A stretch of 33,194 nt of DNA. Origin: Limisphaerales bacterium (GTDB lineage: Bacteria; Verrucomicrobiota; Verrucomicrobiia; Limisphaerales; SIBE01). Under the pieces are notes generated by a model. The model made no database searches and was not told the origin of the DNA. It worked only from the letters and a program-made list of their open reading frames with translations. Below, in pieces: positions 1 through 11,617 of the stretch. How positions within the stretch are numbered: the first letter of the stretch is position 1; each line of letters starts with the position of its first letter. The stretch covers positions 1 to 33,194 of the forward strand of contig JBGAIN010000088.1 of NCBI GenBank assembly GCA_044225505.1, in the 5' to 3' direction. The translations under genes were made by a program, and so were the position numbers.

Positions 1-859
1 AAGAGATCGCAACTTCGATCGTCAGATCCGGAGCGGGAGGGCATTTGCCGAGGGCGTTCTGTTGCCCGCCCAGCGCATTCACATGCTCAATGATGGCATT
101 TCCAGCGTTCCGAATGGGAGAAGTCCAGGCTCGCACGATGTCTGCCGTATCTCGAATTTTGAGATACCAGTGCTGGAAGCGGTGCTTCTGTCCTGCCGTG
201 AGAAAGGCACCGTCTTGAAGCCAGGTCATGTTCCAATGTCCCTGAGCAGACCACCTGTAGGGGAGCGGGAAACGTCCCTGGCGAATAGGGTTCCAATGAT
301 GCACGATTCCCCCACGAACGGCTCCTTGTGCGCCACCGATTGCCTTTCGGAAACCCTTTCGCGCATTTCCTTCGAGCAGATAACGCCCCGCCTCGCCACT
401 ATACTGAATGGCACGCCGACGGAGAGCACCACCCCCGAGAGTTACCGTCGTTTCCACAACAAATTCGGTCGTTTCCCCCACATAATAAAGGCCACTGGAA
501 TAGTCCACCGCGTCAATGGCAAGCTTACCCCGCAGCCAAGAGGTGATGCCCATGGTCAGGGAATCTGCAACACCGGCGGAAGCGTCCGCTGCCGGTTCAA
601 GCCAAGTCCAATCAGTAATGTCGCGACCATAGGCGTCGACGTAGCGAATTGGATTATTGTCGCAGAAGCCATACAGGTTCAGCCCTCCCTTCTCTCCGAT
701 CGGGTCCCTGGAAAGCCACCTTCCAGTGGAGGGGTTGTAATAACGGTGGCCTGTTACGACAGCGCAAAAACCCGGGTACAGCGGTTTTTGGCTCGCACGG
801 CAACGGCGGATCGAACTGCCGATGGGCAGACAGCGCTGCGAGGAAAGTCGCGTCTTGAT
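1..859 (-). CDS. Rhs-associated core + C-terminal toxin cassette A (HNH-like nuclease tip), runs off the window start; start codon uncertain (ATC at 859 or in-frame TTG at 865)
   Basis: Not in the ORF track. My manual minus-strand translation is open from 859 to base 2: IKTRLSSQRCLPIGSSIRRCRASQKPLYPGFCAVVT-GHRYYNPSTGRWLSRDPIGEKGGLNLYGFCDNNPIRYVDAYGR (Rhs core with DxxG cleavage motif), then ...IVHHWNPI...QGHWNMTWL...QKHRFQH (HH..N..H..H pattern). Confidence 0.85.
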   Translation of the reverse strand, partial: MKTRLSSQRCLPIGSSIRRCRASQKPLYPGFCAVVTGHRYYNPSTGRWLSRDPIGEKGGLNLYGFCDNNPIRYVDAYGRDITDWTWLEPAADASAGVADSLTMGITSWLRGKLAIDAVDYSSGLYYVGETTEFVVETTVTLGGGALRRRAIQYSGEAGRYLLEGNARKGFRKAIGGAQGAVRGGIVHHWNPIRQGRFPLPYRWSAQGHWNMTWLQDGAFLTAGQKHRFQHWYLKIRDTADIVRAWTSPIRNAGNAIIEHVNALGGQQNALGKCPPAPDLTIEVAIS

Positions 860-1037
860 GGCCAAGAGCCTAGTTCGCGGAGCGGCGGCGAAAAGAATAA
901 TCGCTGGTCATCGCAGTTGATCTCTTCTCCGATACAGCGCGTTTTGACCTCTGAGAATCGAGCGCAAGGTCGAATCTTAACGCTAACGAAATCATAGCCC
1001 TCTGAGCAGCAGTTACTTGTCATAGTGACACCAGAAC

Positions 1038-1622
1038 TCAAGGGACACCGGCTCGGCGGGCTTGCCACTGCTCAGCGTTCTTCAAGGCCTTCCGCAAAAC
1101 ATCTCTATCCACATTCCATCGCTCGTCCTGGTTAATCCAACTTAACCATTTTCGAACTACCGCCCACTGTTGTTCCGTGAACAGCTTCCAGCGCTCCTGC
1201 CTCCAAGAGACGAGATCTTTCTCATCGATGGAATCAATGGCCTGCGCGATTTCAGGGTTTTCCGTCAAGAGGGCCGATTCCGCGTTCTTCAACGATTCAG
1301 GCCAATGGATTCCACCATCGGCCAACATGTTGATCAGCGTGTCCACAAAGAGGCTGGTTTTCTCAACATCGGCTTGTGACTGTTTAATGAAGGCCGGGAA
1401 AAAATAGTGAAACGCTCGAGGGTTTAACCAAGAGGCCATGTCGAATGATTCTTGCAGCAAATCTACCCGAATAGCCTCCCACCTTTCACCCACTAACTTT
1501 TCAGCGTCGATGCGATCAAAATCATATTCAGGTGGCGATTCCCCCTCCGTCGTGCGCACCAAATCCTTGGGGTATTCGCGTTGAAAAGCTTGATGCAGTT
1601 CTTCGTCCGAAATCGCGGTCAT
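1038..1622 (-). CDS. Putative cytoplasmic immunity protein for cassette B (DUF6714-like)
   Basis: 194 aa, starts 16 bp after the cassette B stop with a GAGG RBS; no signal peptide; 'GERWEAI...WLNPRAFHYFFPAFI' resembles DUF6714 (recalled, not searched). Confidence 0.7.
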   Translation of the reverse strand: MTAISDEELHQAFQREYPKDLVRTTEGESPPEYDFDRIDAEKLVGERWEAIRVDLLQESFDMASWLNPRAFHYFFPAFIKQSQADVEKTSLFVDTLINMLADGGIHWPESLKNAESALLTENPEIAQAIDSIDEKDLVSWRQERWKLFTEQQWAVVRKWLSWINQDERWNVDRDVLRKALKNAEQWQARRAGVP

Positions 1623-1637
1623 CTCGGCATCCTCCTC

Positions 1638-2288
1638 TCACAGTGGACCTGTGCAGCCATTCTTCACTTGATACGTGGTGCAATCCCCGATGACCTGCCA
1701 GACTTGCGCGAGTGCTTGCTGGTGACCAGGATCACCTCCAGAAAAGCATTGTTTATGCAATCTGCTGCGTGCTAGCGCAACTGCCAGCCACGCTGCTGAT
1801 TTTCCCTTGAGAATTCCGCAAGTGTCATTGCTGTTACATTTCCCCAGAGCATTCGCGCCTCTCTTTGCGACCTGAACAGCAACGGCTAGAGCGCAGCACT
1901 CTTTGCTCGCACCAAGAGTGTCCAATAAATCACTCAAGCACGCCTGCTGCTGCGCTGGCGTAGGCAACCTCATGCAAGCCTCGACAGAAGCGTCAATACT
2001 TGAAACTGCAAGACCGAGGTAATCAGTCTGGTCGATAGGATTGTTCCCAACAAAAGCATAGAGGTTCGGTCCTCCACCGAGAGGATCTACCTTTCCGCCA
2101 CGCGACAACTCAAAACCTGGTTCACCCAACGGGTCTCTGGATAGCCACCGACCGGTGGAGGCGTTGTAATAACGGTGGCCTGTTATTGCAGCCGAAAAAT
2201 CCCGGTACAGTGATTTTCGATTCACACAAAGACGTTGGTGGCGGCGCGAACCGTCGGCAGTTCGCTGCGAGGATCGCCGCGTCTTCAT
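1638..2288 (-). CDS. Rhs-associated core + toxin cassette B (Ntox16-like predicted RNase)
   Basis: GHRYYNASTGRWLSRDP...NLYAFVGNNPIDQTDYLGL core; Cys-rich helical tip with 'ALARSRLHKQCFSGGDPGH' resembling the Ntox16 AR...CFxGGDxGH signature. Confidence 0.85.
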   Translation of the reverse strand: MKTRRSSQRTADGSRRHQRLCVNRKSLYRDFSAAITGHRYYNASTGRWLSRDPLGEPGFELSRGGKVDPLGGGPNLYAFVGNNPIDQTDYLGLAVSSIDASVEACMRLPTPAQQQACLSDLLDTLGASKECCALAVAVQVAKRGANALGKCNSNDTCGILKGKSAAWLAVALARSRLHKQCFSGGDPGHQQALAQVWQVIGDCTTYQVKNGCTGPL

Positions 2289-2608
2289 GGAGAAGAGCCT
2301 ATATCGCGGAGCGCCAGCGAAAAGAAGAATCGCTGGTCATCCCGGTTGATCCCTTCTGCGATGCAACCTCTTTTAAGCCCTGAAAATCGAGCGCAACGTC
2401 AAGTCGTAACGTTAACGAAATTGCAGGCGCTTTAGCAGTAGCTACTTGCCGTGGTAACACTAGAAAGCAGAATAGGAGTGTGTTCCCAAAGCTGCTGCGG
2501 GCCTAATTTACGCCTGAGCGCTTCGCAGAGAAAGCGCAAGCAATTGTAACGCCGGTTTTGAGGCGCCCGGAAGACTTGGGATGAAGTCCAGGCACGGCGC
2601 CAGACCTG

Positions 2609-3016
2609 CTAATCTGCGTGCAATCGGGCACTACCGTTAGCGTAAATATTTACCCAATGCCGGTTGCTATCGGAAGTAACCTCAAAGGCTATCGCCGCTG
2701 AGCCAAGCGTCGGGTTAATCGTCTCCCCTGGAAGAGCCAGTTTCCATTTCTGCAAGTCGATATTTGTCCCGATGATGCCTGGCTGAAGTTCCGCTAGAGT
2801 CTTTGGGAGGGTGAAGTTATTAGTGCTCGCATGCAGTAACAGTGCGGCGCCAATGAGCTCTCCTTCTAAGATCTTATTTACGGTGCGCCCATCAGGAGTT
2901 TGTCGCCATAGTTGATAGCTCTTTCTGTTCTGCTCGACGAGCCAAGCGAAGCACAATCCAGCCACTCCCACTCCACACGCGAATCCCAGTAAGCCGTTCA
3001 ATTTCCGTGAGATCAT
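2609..3016 (-). CDS. Putative membrane-anchored immunity protein for cassette C
   Basis: Likely start MISRKLNG at 3016 overlaps the toxin stop (ATGA, 3013-3016); N-terminal hydrophobic segment LLGFACGVGVAGLCFAWLV, then a soluble domain. Confidence 0.75.
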   Translation of the reverse strand: MISRKLNGLLGFACGVGVAGLCFAWLVEQNRKSYQLWRQTPDGRTVNKILEGELIGAALLLHASTNNFTLPKTLAELQPGIIGTNIDLQKWKLALPGETINPTLGSAAIAFEVTSDSNRHWVNIYANGSARLHAD

Positions 3017-3717
3017 TTGGCATTCCTCAACTCCGGTAAGGCCTGCAGGCACAGCTCTTCACACGTTTTTCCCTTTTTACAGGCGAGACTCCTCCCTCGT
3101 GCATTGGCGATGTTATCACCGGGAGAATCATTTGGGTCATAGAAACCCATGAAATGCTCCTTATACCAACTGCCGAACCAGGCTGCGAGTCGTCCCATAA
3201 AGCACTCACGGGTGATTCGACAGTTGGCGATACAGTGCGCGAGTCTGCACGAGCCATCGAGGTATTTTTCCTTCGCCTCCGTTGTGCAATACTTATCCTC
3301 AACTTCATCGAAAATCGCCCAGGCGCAGCCCTCCGTTGTGATACTAGGATCAATCGACAAATCAGGAGGCAATCCCATTCCATCAAGACCCAGAAAATCG
3401 AAGCGATTCATAGGGTCATTACGAAGGAACCCGTAGAGATTTAGCTCGTCGGAACGATGCTCGGAATTATCTTTGGCGGCACGCGCCTTGGAGCAAGTAT
3501 CCCTAACACTGCTCAGATTCTTCGGGTGGCAAAGATCAAAACCGAGTTCATTCTTCGGATCTCTGGAGAGCCACCGTCCGGTGGAGGGGTTGTAATAACG
3601 GTGGCCAGATACTACACCGCAAAAACCCGGGTACAAGGGTTTTTTGCTCGCGCGGCGACCCCGACGGCGAGGGCTTCCGATTGGCGGACAACGCCGCTTT
3701 GACGACAGCAGCCTCAC
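3013..3717 (-). CDS. Rhs-associated core + toxin cassette C (serum amyloid A-like tip)
   Basis: GTG start; GHRYYNPSTGRWLSRDP...NLYGFLRNDPMNRFDFLGL core; tip LAHCIANC...AAWFGSWYKE...DSPGDNIANARGRS. Confidence 0.85.
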   Translation of the reverse strand: MRLLSSKRRCPPIGSPRRRGRRASKKPLYPGFCGVVSGHRYYNPSTGRWLSRDPKNELGFDLCHPKNLSSVRDTCSKARAAKDNSEHRSDELNLYGFLRNDPMNRFDFLGLDGMGLPPDLSIDPSITTEGCAWAIFDEVEDKYCTTEAKEKYLDGSCRLAHCIANCRITRECFMGRLAAWFGSWYKEHFMGFYDPNDSPGDNIANARGRSLACKKGKTCEELCLQALPELRNAK

Positions 3718-3794
3718 GGTTCCAAATCCGACGCCGATCAGCGTCAGCTAGAAGGAGAATAAGCCTTCTCCCGCTTCCTGCGGTGGCGCGTGGG

Positions 3795-3965
3795 TTATTC
3801 GGCGCGGACGACTCTCGAAAGCAGGAATCCTAGAGCCATCATTAACCCGCCTATAGGAGTCATCCAATCCAGAATCAGTCCGTAGTGCTGTAATGCCTTA
3901 CCCACGAGGAGGCCAAGACCGATGCCGCTTACACAGCCAAAAACAAACGTCTTTCTTGCGATCAT
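3795..3965 (-). CDS. Small two-TM putative immunity protein for cassette D (56 aa)
   Basis: Below the ORF-track cutoff. Manual translation MIARKTFVFGCVSGIGLGLLVGKALQHYGLILDWMTPIGGLMMALGFLLSRVVRAE*; GGAGG RBS just upstream; starts 22 bp after the cassette D stop. Confidence 0.75.
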   Translation of the reverse strand: MIARKTFVFGCVSGIGLGLLVGKALQHYGLILDWMTPIGGLMMALGFLLSRVVRAE

Positions 3966-3986
3966 TGTCCTCCAGTCGATTCAATT

Positions 3987-4562
3987 TCATTCTATGGGCT
4001 TGTCCGTCCACGGGCTGATCAAGATGCCATTACGAAAACACCCTTCCTCGCGGCAGCCAGCCCATGCCACTAACCAGTTGCCTGCTAACCCTAATCCGAC
4101 ACCGATTCCGATGACCGGGACTTTGATCCCGATGAGGGTTGCCGCGCCTCCAACGATAGCTCCGACGCCGGTATCAATTGAAATGTCGTTTGCGCATTTA
4201 CAGGCGCTTGAATAGCCGCCAGCCTTCCAAAGGGGGATCCATTGTCCACCAACCTCCTGACATTTACCCGGCCAACTCCACGCCGCCAGCCCCAAAACAT
4301 CGACGCTACTGACGGGCCTATTGTCAACGAAAGCGTAGAGGTTGAGACTGGCAACTTTGTTCGTCGCCAGATCTCGATGCAAATTCACAAAACCCAAATC
4401 GGACAAGGGATCCCTGGAAAGCCACCGTCCGGTGGAGGGGTTGTAATAACGGTGGCCTGTTATTGCATCTGGAAAAATCCGGAACAGTGATTTTCGGCTC
4501 GCACGGTGACGCCGAGGGCCTCCTATGGGCGGGCAACGCTGCTTTGACCACAGCAGTTTCAC
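3987..4562 (-). CDS. Rhs-associated core + toxin cassette D (glycine-zipper, membrane-active-like tip)
   Basis: GTG start; GHRYYNPSTGRWLSRDP...NLYAFVDNRPVSSVDVLGL core; tip with GVGAIVGGAATLIG...GIGVGLGLAG hydrophobic Gly zipper. Confidence 0.85.
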   Translation of the reverse strand: MKLLWSKQRCPPIGGPRRHRASRKSLFRIFPDAITGHRYYNPSTGRWLSRDPLSDLGFVNLHRDLATNKVASLNLYAFVDNRPVSSVDVLGLAAWSWPGKCQEVGGQWIPLWKAGGYSSACKCANDISIDTGVGAIVGGAATLIGIKVPVIGIGVGLGLAGNWLVAWAGCREEGCFRNGILISPWTDKPIE

Positions 4563-4765
4563 GAAGGTTAAGCGTAATCAACTACAGCAGCAGTTAAAAG
4601 GAAAACCAACATATCTGAGCCTCGCTTGGGATGTTTCGAAGCGGAGGCGTCGCGGTTCTCGGAAGGGAGGTGGGCCGAGGAGCCGCCAGAGCCAGAGCGC
4701 AGAAAGCTCCCAAGGGAGCCCTCCGAGGGGCAGAGCCAAGTCTTGCCTGTTTCGCGCCTGCCGGG

Positions 4766-4785
4766 CCATAGCTTTGGCGAAGGCT
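4766..4785. repeat. REP-like short imperfect palindrome (gccatagctttggcgaaggc)
   Basis: Imperfect hairpin resembling a common dispersed intergenic repeat type (recalled); lies in the spacer between cassette D and the cassette E immunity gene. Confidence 0.45.
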
Positions 4786-4856
4786 GGGCGTAGTCTCATC
4801 GAGGGGAAGCGAAAGCCGGTAAGTCTTGGCTAGGACCATTTCCGAAATATCCGCCG

Positions 4857-5297
4857 TTACCGCATTTCCTGCTTCAGCCGCTGTAGGCGTGTCTCAAACG
4901 GTTCCTCCCTGTAGAGGGTTATCGCGTTCGACCAGCCATCACTCCCATTGAGCACTCCAATGAAAACACCAGAAGTAACCAGGCGACCGTCGATCCCTTT
5001 TAGGTGCGGATTCGATACCAGCTCGACCCGAACTGCGTTAGGACTTTGAACTTGCCACGACTGGATTCTCATTGTGCGAGGAGTTTCGAAAAATGGCGAC
5101 GAGTAGGCAAGTGTGCCACCATTGGACGAGCTAAGATGCAGGCGATAAAGATACAAATCGGCCTGCGCAAAACCAAACCATGCACCCGCAACATCGTTGC
5201 GTTGGTAGGGTTTGCCTTTTTCGACGATATATTCAGGGGATTTACACGAACAAAGGAGCAAAATGCCCCAGAACAGCAGTGCTGCTGGATGTTTCAT
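4857..5297 (-). CDS. Putative lipoprotein immunity protein for cassette E
   Basis: Signal peptide with lipobox-like MKHPAALLFWGILLLCSC; ATGA overlap with the toxin stop at 5294-5297. Confidence 0.8.
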   Translation of the reverse strand: MKHPAALLFWGILLLCSCKSPEYIVEKGKPYQRNDVAGAWFGFAQADLYLYRLHLSSSNGGTLAYSSPFFETPRTMRIQSWQVQSPNAVRVELVSNPHLKGIDGRLVTSGVFIGVLNGSDGWSNAITLYREEPFETRLQRLKQEMR

Positions 5298-6484
5298 TTC
5301 TTGTCCTTGTAAGACTCCTTACATCCGACGCATTTCTCGATCATCTGAATGTAAAAATTCGGATCTTTCTTCAGCCCAGCGCCGTGCAGAGTCTCGTGCA
5401 AAGCAAGACAATCCAGACTTGTGCCGCAACTTCCGGCAGTTCCTTTAAACGCCTCTGGGCACAAATGAACTATCCCTGATCCATTTTTAGCGAAATCCTC
5501 TCCTTGGGCAACAAACGCGCAAGTTCCAGAAACACACTCCTTGCTGCTTGCTTCCTCGCACACGAGCAGAATCGTGAAATCGTCCTTGCAGATCTTCTGG
5601 TAATTGTTCTTTGTTCGCAAATCGCAGTCCAGGCACTTGTTCTTTTGGGTAGCTTGGCACATCCTCTTTAGACCAGCAGCAAATTGATCCCTCTGTTCGT
5701 CGCTGCAAGTTGAGCCGATCACCCTTAACCCCAGCCGATCCACCTTGTCGACAGGGCTGTTTTTGACGAACGCGTACAAATTCAGCCCACCCTTCTCCCC
5801 GATCGGGTCTCTGGAGAGCCATCGTCCGGTGGAGGGGTTGTAATAACGGTGGCCGTAGTAAACCAAATCCGTCTCCGGATCAGAGCATTTGGTGGACCAG
5901 CGGATCGGGATGGCGGGGCTGATCGAGCTGGTGGCTCGGATCACTTCACCGAAGGGGCCGTATTCATGCTGCGCGGTTACCTGACCGCTCCCTCCACTGA
6001 CGTAGGCCACTACGTTCCCATTGCCGTCATAGGCCGGGAAATACATCGTCCCGCCTGCCAACACAGCTACGAGTCCTCCGACCCCACCCGCCCCCTGTAT
6101 CGAGCCGCTCAAGTCCGTTCCCCAGGAGTAGGCCCGAATGAGGGCATCGGCACCGTCAAACTCCGCCACTAAGTTCCAGCCATCCCAAACATACTTGGCT
6201 TGCCCCTGGAGCACATACGTCGACCCGTTATAGGTATAGGTTTTCTTGGAGACTCGACGCCCCTGGCTGTCGTATTCAAACTCCAGCCTTCGCTTGGCAC
6301 GGGTCGGCACCGCACTTTGGGATTGCACCGCCACAAGACGGTTCTCCGCGTCGCGTTTTGCGATAACGCTGACCCCAAACCGTCTTATGATCCCTCTCTC
6401 GCCGGGCCGCGTCGGTCCGGCAGTAGGACGGTTCATCGCGTGATAGGCCGCTTCCGGATATTCCAGATCCAGTTGCCTGGGCAT
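5294..6484 (-). CDS. 5'-truncated Rhs protein (last YD repeats + associated core + HExxH metalloprotease tip), cassette E; N-terminus appears transposase-derived
   Basis: DAENRL, EYDSQGRRVSK, WDGWNLVAE, GAGGVGGL, YDGNGNV, EYGPFGE, YYGHRYYNPSTGRWLSRDPIGEKGGLNLYAFVKNSPVDKVDRLGL, then Cys-rich tip with VHLCPEAF...LALHETLH. Confidence 0.9.
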   Translation of the reverse strand: MPRQLDLEYPEAAYHAMNRPTAGPTRPGERGIIRRFGVSVIAKRDAENRLVAVQSQSAVPTRAKRRLEFEYDSQGRRVSKKTYTYNGSTYVLQGQAKYVWDGWNLVAEFDGADALIRAYSWGTDLSGSIQGAGGVGGLVAVLAGGTMYFPAYDGNGNVVAYVSGGSGQVTAQHEYGPFGEVIRATSSISPAIPIRWSTKCSDPETDLVYYGHRYYNPSTGRWLSRDPIGEKGGLNLYAFVKNSPVDKVDRLGLRVIGSTCSDEQRDQFAAGLKRMCQATQKNKCLDCDLRTKNNYQKICKDDFTILLVCEEASSKECVSGTCAFVAQGEDFAKNGSGIVHLCPEAFKGTAGSCGTSLDCLALHETLHGAGLKKDPNFYIQMIEKCVGCKESYKDKK

Positions 6485-6540
6485 GACCTCCTCCCTACTG
6501 CCGCCAATACTTTATGTCAATCATGAGGACTAACACCCAC
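6428..6540 (-). mobile_element. Remnant of a REP-associated tyrosine (Y1/RAYT-like) transposase 5' end with promoter and RBS
   Basis: MPRQLDLEYPEAAYHAMNR resembles the recalled Y1_Tnp/RAYT N-terminus MPRxLRIEYPGAxYHVMNRG; upstream TTGACA (6520-6515)-N17-TAGGGA and GGAGG RBS. Confidence 0.6.
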
Positions 6541-6551
6541 GGTTTGCTTCC

Positions 6552-6630
6552 GTAGCCGACGAGGTGACGAGGCGGAACAGAAATCATGCTTTGAATTGAA
6601 GTCACTCCGCCTCGTGACCTCGTCGGCTAC
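6552..6630. repeat. REPIN-like inverted repeat (GTAG-type REP doublet)
   Basis: gtagccgacgaggtgacgaggcgga (6552-6576) and tccgcctcgtgacctcgtcggctac (6606-6630) are 24/25 reverse-complementary with a 29-nt spacer. Confidence 0.85.
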
Positions 6631-7063
6631 CCAGGTCTGATCCACGAGTCCGTTTCCTAACTTCCGAACGAACGTCTCGACCACCTCCTGCCGCGGCGAA
6701 AGTGAGCAGCGCTCCGCTTCTTAAGAAATCTTGGCGTGGTCGCATCTTGGCGTGCGGAACGCATTCAGCCATCCACCCGAGAGTGAGCGACTGGCCAGAG
6801 ATATGTCTCACATGCCGGGAGCAAATTGCTCCGGGATTCGGTTGCGCCGTCGCGACGCGCGACGACGGAGGATAGCCGCCGCGTTACTCGCTCGTTATCC
6901 CGACCTGTCGGGACGGGTCTGCGCCTCGCTCGCGCCTTACGGGCGCGCAAAAACCCTCGCCGCGAAAGTGCAAGGACTTAGCGGTCACCACACTAGATCG
7001 CTGACTTTGGCTGGATGTGACGGTTCGCGGTGGGGGGATGCAGAGCGGACGAAGGTGCGAAAG

Positions 7064-7117
7064 GATTAGGAGAACGATTAAGATCAGGATTACGATTAAG
7101 ATTATGATTATGATTAC
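7064..7117 (+). repeat. Degenerate hexamer tandem repeat (GATTAN) x9
   Basis: gattag gagaac gattaa gatcag gattac gattaa gattat gattat gattac. Confidence 0.9.
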
Positions 7118-7186
7118 GGGGGGAAGACCAAGACGGAAGCTGTTGGTATATAGCGAGCTGCATGGAACTCGGCTCGCCTCGAGGGA

Positions 7187-7226
7187 AAAGCGCCAGGGGT
7201 CTGGCGCACTCCAAGACGCTGGCGCG
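7187..7226 (+). repeat. Dispersed REP-like element, copy 1 (aaagcg...cactccaagacgctggcgcg)
   Basis: Hairpin gcgccag-gggt-ctggcgc followed by actccaagacgctg; related copy at 12663-12702. Confidence 0.75.
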
Positions 7227-7726
7227 GAAGGACGAAGGTGCCTCAAAAACTCGTTCGCCGCACCATCCCAGTTGAGGCCTTCTGCAAGCTGGCAACAATT
7301 TGTTGACGGAGTGTGAGACAAATCAACCAATGGACGCACAGTTTGGGAACGGACCGTTCCCAAACCGAAGATCGGGTGGCGACAAAAAGTCACCAGATGG
7401 GGCTGACCACCGTCGTTCGAAACCGGTGACCATGCCCAACGTGTGGCGAGTAAGCGAGGTACCTGCGTGCGCGGGAAGTCTCCTGTCGCTTTGATATCGT
7501 TTCCGATCGTCTCTACCCGCTTTTCCGGAGAATCGCGACCTGGGAAGCCCTGCGCCACTTCGATTTTAGATGCCTCGAGCGCGTGAGGTCGCCGAAGCAG
7601 AGCGGTTGATCTCGCCGTTCAGAAACCCTTTCAGGGCTGCTAGGAACGGTCGGCTGCGGCAGGTTGGGCTCGCCAGATTGGCCTTACCCCCGCTCCGAAC
7701 CACCATGAACTCCTGAACGACCGGTT

Positions 7727-9289: not shown

Positions 9290-10523
9290 TCCCGGCGTCA
9301 CTTTCGGACGGACTTCCACCGGGCGGGCCATGTTTTAGGCCGATATTCTGCTCATAACTGCCGAGCTTGACCACTTGCGCAGCCCGTTTCGGGCGGAGTT
9401 CCAGCTTCAAATACGCAATCCGATTCAATGCGTTTTCCGCCGCGGCCGTTTTCGGGTAGAGCTCGGCAATTCTCCGTAAGGTCGCGCGGGCCTGAGCTTC
9501 GTCCCCTGTCAGCTCGATCTGCAAATCCGCGAGGGTATTAAGCCAATGCACCACTTGCTTGGTCGGCTGGCCGGGATACCCGATCAGTTGCTCCAACTGG
9601 TCCGTCGCCAGGTCAAGCCGTTGATACTCGCGCGCGTAAAGTAACGCCAGCTTCTCCCGGGCCTCGTAATCGTCCGGATACTGTTCCAGGTGCTGCACGA
9701 ACTTCCCTGCCACCACGCTTGGATCCTCTGGTGGCGGAACAAGGTTTACGGGCGTCGTTCTCAGTCCGATATTCTGTTCTCCCGGGCGTAATGCAATCCG
9801 TGCGGGAGCCTCTCTTTCCGCCAGCATGGCTTCCGGCGTTAGGTGCGCAATCCGCTGCAAGGCCAACTGCGCTTGTTCAGTCCCGGGAAGACGGGCCACA
9901 ATCTGTTCCAGGGCCAGCCGCGCCGATTCGCGATCGCCGTTTAACTTCAAATGCCAGTCCGCTTCCCGGCTCAAGGCGAAGGCGATGTTCTTCGGCGCGT
10001 GGCCTTCCTGAGCGAGAACCTGGGCCAGTGTCTCCCGCGCTGCCGACAAATCTTTCAGATCCTCCGCCTGGATTTCAGCCAAGAGCATCCAGCCCGGGAA
10101 ATCTGTTGGAAACCGTTCCAGCTGAGATTGCACTTCCTCGATCGCTTCCGCGTATCGGCCTTGTTTACGACGGGCGTTGGCCCGTGAGTAGAATGGCGTC
10201 GGATCCACTTGTTCGTTCCCGCCCGTATACAAGGAAGCGAATTGGTCCCCCACAAAATCGCAGAACTTTTGCCGCCAAACAAAGGTCATCACCAGCCCAC
10301 CCACAGCGCCAATCAAGACCGCGGCAATCTTGGAAAACTCGTCTCGGGCGCGAGCGGCTGAGACAAAGACAAAGCCCAACACGACGGCGCTGATTGCCCA
10401 GCGGACAAGCAGTTGGCCGGGCTCATCACTGGCCTTGAGCCAGCGCCAGAGCAGCCAGCCCATAAAGCCCAGAACGACGAAGAGCGGGATGAGGTTCCAG
10501 ACCAGGTGAGGAGTCGAGTGCAT
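9279..10523 (-). CDS. Membrane-anchored tetratricopeptide repeat protein
   Basis: Three N-terminal hydrophobic helices, then TPR-like helices (YSRANARRKQGRYAEAIEE, AREKLALLYAREYQRLDLA). Confidence 0.8.
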   Translation of the reverse strand: MHSTPHLVWNLIPLFVVLGFMGWLLWRWLKASDEPGQLLVRWAISAVVLGFVFVSAARARDEFSKIAAVLIGAVGGLVMTFVWRQKFCDFVGDQFASLYTGGNEQVDPTPFYSRANARRKQGRYAEAIEEVQSQLERFPTDFPGWMLLAEIQAEDLKDLSAARETLAQVLAQEGHAPKNIAFALSREADWHLKLNGDRESARLALEQIVARLPGTEQAQLALQRIAHLTPEAMLAEREAPARIALRPGEQNIGLRTTPVNLVPPPEDPSVVAGKFVQHLEQYPDDYEAREKLALLYAREYQRLDLATDQLEQLIGYPGQPTKQVVHWLNTLADLQIELTGDEAQARATLRRIAELYPKTAAAENALNRIAYLKLELRPKRAAQVVKLGSYEQNIGLKHGPPGGSPSESDAGING

Positions 10524-10555
10524 AAGTCCCTTCGCGCCGTGCCACTCTCCGCGTA

Positions 10556-11617
10556 CTACCCTGTGCGCTTCACTATCCGTTCCGGGTTACGTGCTCGCTT
10601 CAAGGCGGTATCGTAACTGATCAGACAACGGCAATAGAGGTCATACAGACAGGCATCCATCAAAATCATTCCCTCCTTGCCACCGGTCTGAATCACCGTC
10701 TCGAGCATGTGCTTGTTGTCTTCACGGATCAGATTCCGTATGGCGCTGTTTGCCACCAGGAGCTCATAGGCCAGCACCCGCCGCGAACGGTCCGCGGAAG
10801 GCAGCAGTTCCTGGGCAATGATCCCCTGCAGCGAATTGGCCAGCTGCATAATAATCTGCCGCTGGGCGGCCCCTTCGAAAACCCCAGTAATCCGTTCAAA
10901 GGCATGAGACACACTGGGTGAATGCAAGGTCGCCAATACCAAATGCCCAGTCTCCGCCGCTGTCAATGCGGCCGAGATCGCGTCATGATCCCGCATCTCG
11001 CCCACCACGATCACGTCCGGATCTTGCCGCAGCGCATGAATCAAGGCTCGGCGAAACGAATGCGTGTCGGTTAGAACCTCCTGTTGGACGATGATCGCCT
11101 TCTTGTTTTCGTGAATGTGCTCGATCGGATCTTCGATGGTCACCACCTTGCAGCGCCGCTCGCTGTTAATGAGATCAACCATGTAGTTCAAGGTCGTCGT
11201 CTTTCCAGCCCCGGTCGGACCCGTGATCAAAACCAATCCGTTCGGACGCCGCGCCAGATCGTCAATCTTCGCTGGCAACCCCAACTCTTCGATGCCTGGA
11301 ATCCGGCGGCCACAGAAGCGAATGCTCATCTCGGGACTCCCGTTCCTCCGATAGAGCGTTACCCGAATGCGCCCCGCCACTTCGTGCGCAAAAGAAATGC
11401 ATAATTCCCATTCCCGATCGAACTTCTCGCGCTGGTCCGGATTCAAGAGATTGTAGGCCATGCCCGCCAAGGCTTCGACCGAGAGGACATCCTCGTCCGC
11501 CAGGATGATTTCGCCGTTGATACGAAACGCCGGGGGCACTCCAACGACCAAGTGAAGGTCCGAAGCTTCCTGCTCGATGGCCGTTGTGATCAGCTTATCA
11601 AAACGTGAGTAGCTCAT
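10556..11617 (-). CDS. pilT: Type IV pilus retraction ATPase (PilT/PilU family)
   Basis: ASDLHL, Walker A GPTGAGKTT, TIEDPIE, LRQDPDVIVVGEMRD, AETGHLVLATLH, AIRNLIRE; start MSYSRF overlaps the upstream stop (ATGA). Confidence 0.92.
   Translation of the reverse strand: MSYSRFDKLITTAIEQEASDLHLVVGVPPAFRINGEIILADEDVLSVEALAGMAYNLLNPDQREKFDREWELCISFAHEVAGRIRVTLYRRNGSPEMSIRFCGRRIPGIEELGLPAKIDDLARRPNGLVLITGPTGAGKTTTLNYMVDLINSERRCKVVTIEDPIEHIHENKKAIIVQQEVLTDTHSFRRALIHALRQDPDVIVVGEMRDHDAISAALTAAETGHLVLATLHSPSVSHAFERITGVFEGAAQRQIIMQLANSLQGIIAQELLPSADRSRRVLAYELLVANSAIRNLIREDNKHMLETVIQTGGKEGMILMDACLYDLYCRCLISYDTALKRARNPERIVKRTG

Follow-up and report, generated by a model that had tools for sequence, protein, structure and literature searches.

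On the evidence of sequence comparison, a whole lineage of orphan Rhs toxin tips carries a dedicated, portable DNA head whose conservation is that of nucleic acid. The usual view of such orphans is that they are silent spare parts. Here, we analyze four of them, with their heads, in a stretch of 33,194 nucleotides from a Limisphaerales bacterium (the window). An earlier note on this DNA had read the Arg-rich leader before each tip as an export or loading signal, with a dedicated cassette DNA element as its fallback, and it is the fallback that fits best. In the reading we prefer, held with about even confidence, the head lets a displaced Rhs tip be translated alone and supplies homology for cassette shuffling. 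What we call the leader would be what frame 0 spells out in a conserved DNA/RNA module, which is about 110 to 170 nt long and lies directly 5' of orphan cassettes (half Rhs core, toxin, and immunity gene) in one Verrucomicrobiota-associated Rhs lineage.

Cassettes and heads

The Rhs core-end motif (RYYxPxxGRW ... DPxG ... DxxGL) precedes the toxin in the translations of cassettes B, C, D, and E (Table 1), while in cassette A the second core-end motif is a variant. Cassettes A to D are orphan Rhs toxins in that a C-terminal toxin follows an Rhs core end. The statement that these four lack YD repeats agrees with Pfam, which detected no RHS repeat in A to D, Ntox16 in B, and weak RHS_repeat and YD-shell matches in E. 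The toxin of cassette E has an HExxH motif, and its N-terminal 19 amino acids resemble the N termini of Y1 transposase genes. Open reading frames (ORFs) in the same orientation after B, C, D, and E are candidate immunity genes by position.

Table 1. Coordinates of cassettes, heads, and their parts in the window
Feature	Position	Strand	Remarks
Cassette A	2..751	-	Half Rhs core and unnamed toxin; frame leaves window
Head of cassette A	752..905	-	Leader frame 752-859; ATC at aligned start
Upstream box in head A	about 887-901	-	In non-coding upstream part
Distal extension of head A (long form)	906..1040	-
Likely immunity gene of B	1038..1622	-	Weak DUF6714 match, under curated cut-off
Cassette B	1638..2180	-	Half Rhs core and Ntox16 toxin
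Head of cassette B	2181..2334	-	Leader frame 2181-2288; ATG start; box about 2316-2330
Distal extension of head B (long form)	2335..2465	-	78% identity to extension of A
Likely immunity gene of C	2609..3052	-	Inferred from position only
Cassette C	3013..3606	-	Half Rhs core and unnamed Cys-rich toxin
Junction palindrome, C	3592..3615	-	Last 9 leader and first 15 core bases
Junction palindrome, counterparts	A 737-760, B 2166-2189, D 4443-4466	-
Head of cassette C	3607..3766	-	Leader frame 3607-3717; GTG start; box about 3745-3759
A-tract / CCC..GGG / T-tract hairpin, head C	3619..3647	-	Counterparts: A about 764-792, B about 2193-2221, D about 4470-4498
Likely immunity gene of D	3795..3965	-	56-aa hydrophobic protein; inferred from position only
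Cassette D	3987..4457	-	Half Rhs core and glycine-rich, membrane-type tip
Head of cassette D	4458..4617	-	Leader frame 4458-4562; GTG start; box about 4588-4607
Likely immunity gene of E	4857..5297	-	Inferred from position only
Cassette E	5294..6484	-	Rhs-type junction, about 220 aa of YD-repeat sequence

All four leader strings given in the earlier note (36, 36, 37, and 35 amino acids, starting at ATC, ATG, GTG, and GTG) are present on the minus strand, and they are homologous, stop-free, and in frame up to the G codon of GHRYY, as it had described; in head A, a TTG lies two codons upstream of the aligned ATC. Conserved DNA reaches about 45 to 50 nt upstream of the proposed start codons, with about 130 nt more in A and B, an extent absent from that description, and a repeat finder reported a 132-nt family of four copies with 73 to 76% identity to the reference. 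In the head, constraint falls on nucleotides, namely in a box (TTTYCTTTTAGCYGC) at the upstream end; a start codon (ATG or GTG) that precedes the junction by 35 to 42 codons; a CG-rich spacer whose length varies and whose codons give the arginines; an A-tract / CCC..GGG / T-tract hairpin; and a left arm of 9 to 10 nt that pairs with the first core codons to form the junction palindrome. Leaders do differ by whole codons, with start-to-junction gaps of 3, 6, and 9 bases in MAFFT alignments, but these gaps sit in a CGC/CGG-rich stretch where triplet slippage is to be expected regardless.

The first G of GGCCACCG is the exact point at which homology to the Rhs-type cassette E begins. In the genome there are 12 copies of the head, every one abutting the same codon, against three Rhs-type junctions, so the shared junction goes beyond chance; the leader thus always abuts the Rhs core here, and head motifs were found nowhere in the genome outside head sites. 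This confinement led us to reject a dispersed hairpin repeat of the REP/RAYT type, since only the long-form distal extension is dispersed (in the extension of head A, the first ~90 nt are a copy of a repeat dispersed in the genome, which has a short GC hairpin and then a run of T's).

At the protein level, 108 of 154 proteins from two database searches were head type, all of 400 amino acids or fewer, with a median head of 42 amino acids that ends in [ST]G in 102 of the 108. Further heads lie on metagenome contigs (13) and in Verrucomicrobiota metagenome-assembled genomes (2). Head-like sequence was absent from 70 other junctions (nearly all Rhs type by eye), which bears out the claim that the leader is unrelated to the Rhs sequence normally found at that position.

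Nucleotide conservation and the open frame

Counted over 51 within-group pairs, differences at codon positions 1, 2, and 3 were 640, 532, and 638 in the head versus 70, 63, and 226 in the first 14 core codons, a third-position share of 35% versus 63%. The dN/dS check suggested for peptide conservation gave pairwise leader values of 0.33 to 2.44, and with the third-position or synonymous excess absent, we rejected the leader as a protein-coding sequence under purifying selection. GC content at positions 1, 2, and 3 was 0.58, 0.63, and 0.54 in the head (GC2 above GC3) versus 0.63, 0.48, and 0.66 in seven long ORFs of the contig. "NPCTGRF" in a second family uses the same hairpin bases as "KKPLYPGF," one frame off, and the upstream box is read in varying frames or sits behind stops. 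Conservation is of nucleotides, not of the peptide, which is free to change while frame 0 stays open. This is also a warning for annotation: what looks like a conserved basic "peptide" free of stops may only reflect a DNA element.

The Arg-rich leader peptide is therefore probably not a specific export signal, and we consider it very improbable that a conserved peptide serves to export a mini-protein or to dock it in trans in an Rhs shell that several tips share. Such a signal would suit the open frame with its start codon, the basic heads (R plus K of 0.2 to 0.38 in 40-residue windows of most heads), and the retention in the cassettes of both Asp-containing motifs of the Rhs core end. Against it stand the substitution pattern and the reading of the same DNA in different frames by related families, as well as the genomic setting. 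No full-length rhs gene with the same core was found in the assembly, upstream of the cassettes or elsewhere (342 contigs, in which a broken gene could escape), which leaves the proposed docking in trans without a recognized shell; the only long Rhs frames (C123 and C139) have a different core, and the three Rhs-type genes of the cassette family are N-terminally truncated chimeras. The leader was also found in no longer protein (411 to 2,000 amino acids), which is weak evidence.

Window-type heads were rejected as Sec signal peptides, since the hydrophobic core (about 10 to 15 residues after the basic N terminus) is absent; their best 12-residue hydropathy is 0.4 to 0.6 (start-trimmed examples P0004, P0009, and P0013). 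Six of the 108 heads are signal-like (2.1 to 2.7), and in a few relatives a Sec-type signal peptide occupies the slot of the Arg-rich stretch. One locus, L105, keeps both head flanks and the ATG and encodes between them a hydrophobic Sec-type signal, as judged by hydropathy; downstream of this head come a complete toxin ORF and a small membrane ORF, and the 10 kb upstream contain no Rhs gene. An Rhs shell gene is missing altogether from the surroundings of some head loci.

In the 111 nt before the junction, 22 heads contain 1, 6, and 35 stops in frames 0, +1, and +2, respectively, versus 24.5 ± 4.5 in shuffled sequences. Frame preservation, a further check raised in the earlier note, thus held in 21 of 22 copies (the only in-frame stop is in head L054_618), with about 12 to 21 stop-creating changes expected on the tree for frame 0. 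Openness is partly compositional, because frame +1 is also stop-poor, and head counts overstate independence, because copies share ancestry. An aligned ATG or GTG occurs in 17 of 21 heads (10/12 from the genome itself and 7/9 of family 2 from metagenomes), and family-2 heads have the ATG in one alignment column in all five cases (5/5); two heads are without an aligned start. The idea that tips are translated mini-proteins with a signal leader finds support in the open frame and aligned start, and none for a conserved signal peptide.

These data also bear on whether the head might be only a spacer that moves along with silent orphans, lying between an immunity gene and the core that follows it, its similarity kept by frequent homologous exchange and its frame and start owed to CG-rich composition and shared descent. 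We judge this unlikely. In its favor, the peptide evolves as if neutral, composition is not gene-like, frame +1 is stop-poor too, mosaic heads exist, and 3 of the 12 own-genome cassettes are broken downstream of the junction with their heads intact, which fits DNA conservation without protein use. No sigma-70-like promoter was called at the heads, and no Shine-Dalgarno core was found before the aligned starts, which says little, because the same test is positive at just 4 of 25 long contig ORFs. Against the spacer stand the contrast of 1 stop in frame 0 with those of frame +2 and the shuffles, a start codon position that is constant across two families and is also used by the signal-peptide variants, and the invariant A- or T-ending codons in the left arm (in 24 of 24 head-type junctions, A or T closes each of the two final leader codons). 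In several pairs, moreover, the head is better conserved than adjacent core synonymous sites: L029 and L038, with different toxins, have 1 aligned difference in 27 shared head codons and 6 in the next 42 bases, and L034 and L045 have 7 in 102 head bases and 6 in 42 core bases.

Junction palindrome and possible cassette exchange

Read on the opposite strand, the R-Y-Y codons give the final codons of the leader. The 24 head-type junctions have a mean of 7.79 Watson-Crick pairs of 10, versus 1.43 (n = 7) and 2.40 (n = 63) at the other 70 junctions; 83.3% of cells at the palindrome are paired, versus 37 to 47% with the partner slid, and columns 59 and 70 pair as U-A in 15 sequences but as A-U in 8. 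With RNAalifold, the 12 copies of the genome reached only -2.45 kcal/mol, and a set of 27 copies yielded no consensus structure; the mean folding z-score was only -0.89 for heads versus 0.03 at Rhs-type junctions. Rfam returned no match at the gathering score over the whole window and none at an E value of ≤1 over positions 600 to 4800. Hairpin and palindrome could serve translation control, RNA processing, or recombination.

The last of these could take the form of an attachment site for integron-like cassette exchange, with palindrome arms of 9 to 10 bp around a 4- to 6-bp spacer and the hairpin alongside. Core-toxin-immunity-head units would be inserted in frame or excised at the G-[HY]-R-Y-Y codons of rhs by a host Xer-type tyrosine recombinase, as for integron or Xer-dependent modules, and the head start codon would keep every displaced tip expressed. 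All 24 head-type copies have a precise junction, only they have the palindrome, which includes one compensatory pair, and its right-arm codons AGA-TAT-TAC prevail at other junctions too (30/63) despite G+C-rich hosts; a database protein (P0003) is an Xer-like tyrosine recombinase C terminus running straight into a head, and L034 lies in an island with an integrase. We nonetheless regard site-specific exchange as decidedly improbable, given that the head-carrying contigs (C174, C140, C81, C77, and C64) contain none of the genome's 11 PF00589 matches. The closest pair, L029 and L038, is identical for 17 bases beyond the junction, which places that breakpoint elsewhere, and the 132 nt common to the solo copies C77 and C81_5111 run from -49 to +83 and do not end at the palindrome. 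A circular or empty-site form was not seen among the contigs aligned to the window, which break at repeats.

In the portable-head reading, the head would make a displaced Rhs tip a self-sufficient gene with its own start codon, and the toxin and immunity pair could then be expressed without an Rhs shell, much as reported for internally expressed Rhs tips of Salmonella. Together with about 130 nt of conserved adjacent core, the head would provide the homology for shuffling cassettes between arrays; one head of the genome (C140_44) is a hybrid of the two head types, and L029 and L038 have nearly the same head before different toxins. Counting against this reading are the in-frame stop of L054_618, the two heads without an aligned start, the cassettes broken behind intact heads, the stop-poor frame +1, the negative promoter call, and the low RNAalifold energy and folding z-score. 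Every tip would have a start codon and open frame of its own, and a few lineages appear to have turned the head into a signal peptide. If heads are used, the arrays would be independently expressed toxin and immunity genes, some perhaps exported, and not mere stores for an Rhs shell. The junction palindrome offers a concrete site for testing toxin-tip exchange.

Comparison with known systems

Signal-like heads (6/108, e.g., L105/P0045) resemble Sec-signal bacteriocin-like toxins in combining a basic N terminus with a hydrophobic core and, ahead of the half core, a small-residue motif, unlike the four window heads and most others, which are without the hydrophobic core. With integron attC sites and Xer-dependent dif modules, the heads share a repeated, partly palindromic element between array cassettes with a precise boundary. 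An attC hairpin is long and imperfect, with outer and inner sites paired and some bases extrahelical; in the heads, two short hairpins are present, for which the RNAalifold consensus was weak or none. Unlike attC and dif modules, the heads have no linked integron integrase or other tyrosine recombinase in this genome, and the element overlaps the coding junction and carries a start codon.

Closer are the classical orphan rhs-CT/rhsI modules of Enterobacteria (Salmonella and E. coli), which likewise form toxin/immunity arrays downstream of an Rhs-type gene, each pair retaining a 3' core-coding part as recombination homology. To our knowledge, the core fragments of those modules vary in length and nothing is conserved upstream of them, whereas here all are cut at the same codon and preceded by a non-Rhs head with start codon, hairpin, and palindrome.

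In Salmonella Typhimurium, internal promoters are described as driving transcription of main and orphan Rhs-CT, whose translation begins at a CTG; promoter and CTG are located within the sequence that codes for the Rhs core, 89 nt ahead of its PxxxxDPxGL-coding part, and this shell-free expression has been proposed to retain the module (PMC7043789). The tips reported here are similar in having a candidate start of their own outside the shell, where the Salmonella start is described as non-ATG (PMC7043789). They differ, as far as that description goes, in that the candidate start lies in a separate non-Rhs module.

Cassette layout and copies in the genome

Cassettes A to D are orphan Rhs cassettes, each comprising half of an Rhs core and a toxin (table); no RHS repeat was found in them by Pfam. 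Cassette E becomes homologous to them precisely at the first G of the G-H-R codons, here called the junction. Directly upstream lies the head, a conserved DNA module of about 110 to 170 nt whose frame-0 reading is the leader. The four leader peptides, their lengths and their aligned start codons (ATC, ATG, GTG, and GTG) are correct on the sequence as the earlier note gave them. An origin of the leader in the corresponding Rhs sequence, with 6 of 17 residues identical by eye, was set aside; upstream of the junction, Rhs-type and head-type sequences share nothing. A repeat finder run on the window returned a 132-nt family across the junction (four copies) as well as a 203-nt repeat that occurs upstream of just A and B. 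The AlphaFold model of cassette D (single sequence; mean pLDDT, 35) was set aside. The toxin tip of E had no family match in Pfam; its HExxH motif (…HETLH…) suggests a metallopeptidase-type toxin.

Blast and motif searches found 12 heads in the genome, each adjoining the same codon (four on the window's contig, four on contig C140, two on C81, and one each on C77 and C64), and three Rhs-type junctions (cassette E, C140, and C79); the motif search found no head motifs in the genome outside the head sites. The frame runs unbroken into the toxin in 8 of the 12 head cassettes, is ended by the contig end in 1, and meets stops shortly past the junction in 3 (C64, C77, and C81_5111). Every long Rhs frame in the assembly carries a core unlike that of the head cassettes, and no shell gene with a matching Rhs core was found there. 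The first ~19 residues of all three Rhs-type genes match the starts of Y1 transposases encoded at other sites in the genome, such as one on C163 with a PF01797 match directly downstream of the shared N-terminus; these three genes are thus truncated chimeras (transposase 5' end plus 3' part of rhs), not shells.

Several other elements were recorded (table). Two solo copies, 89% identical, hold the last ~49 nt of a head and 83 nt of core; in each, a stop comes after 14 core codons, and no toxin lies behind. The second array has, upstream of its E-like gene, an open reading frame that resembles, by eye, a group II intron reverse transcriptase. Upstream of E lies a region that holds a run of ATC/GAT-type triplets and also precedes the E-like gene on C79; its summed contig depth was 100 to 250 in four metagenome runs versus about 6 for the cassettes, and it is probably a multicopy repeat. 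A dispersed intergenic repeat (~90 to 150 nt; a short GC hairpin, then T's) forms the distal part of long-form heads, and some of its copies (C245, C150, and C254) lie 0.4 to 2.5 kb from Y1-transposase-like genes; homology of the head proper with this repeat was rejected (alignment z of ~0 beyond the repeat's first 95 nt).

Locations of cassettes and associated elements (C, contigs of the same genome, G000; L, compared loci; P, database protein)
Feature	Location	Strand	Description
Cassette A	window 2-865	minus	basic 35-37-codon start, G-H-R-Y-Y-N-P-S-T-G-R-W, DPxG, DxxGL-type motif, own toxin
Cassette B	window 1638-2288	minus	layout as A, different toxin; Ntox16 (Pfam)
Cassette C	window 3013-3717	minus	layout as A, different toxin
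Cassette D	window 3987-4562	minus	layout as A, different toxin
Cassette E	window 5294-6484	minus	weak RHS_repeat and YD-shell matches (Pfam)
Toxin tip of E	window 5294-5700	minus	HExxH motif
Rhs-type gene 5' end	window 6350-6484	minus	matches Y1 (IS200/RAYT-like) transposase N-termini
Rhs-type gene 5' end	C140:9498-9629		as above
Rhs-type gene 5' end	C79:56612-56746		as above
Region upstream of E	window 6605-7366		probable multicopy repeat
Solo copies	C77:5967-6098; C81:5062-5193		head end plus core
Intron-like reading frame	C140:11023-12000 (L001)		resembles group II intron reverse transcriptase
Dispersed repeat in heads	window 930-1040; 2371-2465		distal part of long-form heads
Dispersed repeat, other copies	C65:13033; C149:38747; C197:27358; C245:14799; C150:35187; C254:3294
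G-P-F-G-E-junction heads	L050:2886-3056; L055:126-296; L094:337-507; L079:5812-5982; L084:1-47; P0012		second kind of head
Tip cassettes	L034 (=L035) 4662-6400; 9404-10660		behind secretin-like gene

Heads outside this genome

The head was absent from 60 relatives (two of the same genus; sampled genomes, some incomplete), two of which matched the core alone. An exact DNA pattern of the head junction recovered all four window sites and gave 0 matches in genome-contig and metagenome-contig collections; it was too strict, since later protein-pattern scans did detect heads. Those scans returned 76 loci from metagenomes and 2 from genomes (one Verrucomicrobiia MAG, one Opitutaceae MAG). Together with six contigs of this genome, these loci gave 94 distinct junctions, 24 head-type and 70 other; by eye, almost all of the latter were normal Rhs sequence with ...YYG at the end. 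Searching 1.84 billion cluster representatives with a profile returned 306 proteins at an E value of ≤1e-10. Of the 154 proteins examined (the best 150 of the 306, with the remainder from a word-based search), 108 had a non-Rhs head, 20 were Rhs-type, and 26 did not fit the motif expression used. All 108 were ≤400 amino acids (aa) long (median head, 42 aa), and the head ended in [ST]G in 102; no leader was found in proteins of 411 to 2,000 aa, which is weak evidence.

There is also a second kind of head, likewise conserved, basic, and non-Rhs, that meets Rhs sequence ~65 codons further upstream, at G-P-F-G-E; its homology with the head studied here was rejected (local alignment z of −0.9 to 3.3, mostly ~0). 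At locus L034, two tip cassettes immediately follow a secretin-like gene, and there is no Rhs shell gene close by; the island in which they lie also encodes a DDE transposase and a tyrosine integrase.

Open frame, nucleotide conservation, and junction palindrome

In the 111 nt before the junction, 22 heads held 1 stop in frame 0, 6 in frame +1, and 35 in frame +2 (shuffles, 24.5 ± 4.5). About 3.5% of substitutions in frame 0 would create a stop, and the tree requires at least 413 changes, so that 12 to 21 stop events were predicted and one was seen; this expectation is too high because frame +1 shows a deficit too, and the stop test therefore gives moderate support to a frame 0 kept open. The aligned start position is occupied by ATG or GTG in 10 of 12 heads of this genome and in 7 of 9 heads of a second family from metagenomes; in five heads of that family, the ATG shares a single alignment column. 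No Shine-Dalgarno core was found before head starts (the same test was positive at only 4 of 25 long contig ORFs), and a consensus scan called no sigma-70-type promoter at heads. A promoter formed by the upstream box and a TAGGCT-like hexamer was dropped, as their spacing is 16 to 17 nt in many copies and 11 to 12 nt in others and the scan was negative. With the open frame and aligned starts on one side and the negative start-site and promoter scans on the other, we consider it somewhat unlikely that the head is a purely silent linker.

Conservation of the head is at the nucleotide level. Differences at codon positions 1, 2, and 3 numbered 640, 532, and 638 over 51 within-group head pairs, versus 70, 63, and 226 when the same pairs were compared over the first 14 core codons; pairwise dN/dS for heads was 0.33 to 2.44. 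(Four copies with stops downstream of the junction were omitted from protein alignments and retained in DNA analyses.) GC content by codon position was 0.58/0.63/0.54 in heads, 0.55/0.49/0.56 in cassette bodies, and 0.63/0.48/0.66 in 7 long contig ORFs. In the second family, the same hairpin bases are read in a frame shifted by one (NPCTGRF versus KKPLYPGF), and the frame is regained before the junction. Upstream of the start codon, the conserved DNA goes on with a box of the form TTTYCTTTTAGCYGC, whose frame differs between copies or which lies behind stops. The earlier note had proposed the Arg-rich leader as an export or loading signal: its stop-free frame (1 stop in 22 heads) and aligned start stand, the codon-position counts and dN/dS speak against peptide constraint, and a conserved export or loading peptide is highly improbable.

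The last nine leader bases and the first G pair with the bases encoding R-Y-Y, GTA-(A/G)TA-TCT being the reverse complement of AGA-TAT-TAC. Head-type junctions form a mean of 7.79 Watson-Crick pairs of 10 (8.50 counting G-T pairs) versus 1.43 (n = 7) and 2.40 (n = 63) at other junctions; in a 27-head alignment, 83.3% of cells are paired versus 37 to 47% with the partner slid. At one paired position, 15 sequences have U-A and 8 have A-U, tracking the Arg codon (AGA versus CGT); this switch probably happened once. Both of the final leader codons have A or T as their third base in 24 of 24 head-type junctions. The palindrome accounts for the apparent V/A-V/I-S/T-G residue conservation, and protein-level constraint is not needed. 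A second hairpin (A-tract, CCC..GGG, T-tract) lies 13 to 14 nt upstream of the junction. RNAalifold gave −2.45 kcal/mol on 12 copies from this genome and no pairs on 27 copies, the mean folding z-score was −0.89 for heads versus 0.03 at 16 Rhs-type junctions, and Rfam gave no match, all of which argues against a strong RNA structure.

In locus L105 (Verrucomicrobiia MAG), the upstream box, ATG, hairpin, and palindrome are all kept, and the CG-rich middle is replaced by coding for a basic N-terminus, a hydrophobic core, and a small-residue motif. This reading frame extends into a glycine-rich tip, a small membrane ORF is next, and no Rhs gene was found within 10 kb upstream. Such hydrophobic, signal-like heads (6 of 108) are the best hint that the head start codon may be real.

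Mosaic heads and comparison with known Rhs systems

The C140_44 head is a hybrid, matching one head type in its 5' part and the other in its 3' part. Loci L029 and L038 are near-identical through the head and 17 bases past the junction, then differ at 6 of the following bases, and their toxins differ; three copies in this genome (C77, C81_1985, and C140_7037) have one head in common and different sequence both upstream and downstream. The head thus acts as a unit of its own, with recombination on either side. Metagenome contigs of four runs on window positions 1 to 7600 broke at the repeats. Two connect parts of different heads (2220 to 4513, X5; 3645 to 4497, X7); at a likeness of 90%, the sequences could come from heads in other cassettes or organisms, and no rearrangement was drawn. 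One database protein (P0003) has a recombinase fragment adjoining a head. That fragment and the junction palindrome would fit a site-specific recombination site, and the identity of L029 and L038 past the junction speaks against one; this reading is quite unlikely.

The likeliest reading, to which we give an even chance, is that the head is a portable nucleic acid module supplying a displaced Rhs tip with a start and open frame of its own, plus homology for shuffling; the Arg-rich peptide would then be a by-product of that module. A full-text literature search found no description of it, an absence there that is not proof, and the parts of Zhang et al. 2012 (PMC3482391) consulted do not mention such a head. 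Those parts describe toxin and immunity cassettes recombining with a constant gene body, and work on Salmonella (PMC7043789, consulted in part) gives a precedent for expression of an Rhs tip independently of its shell.
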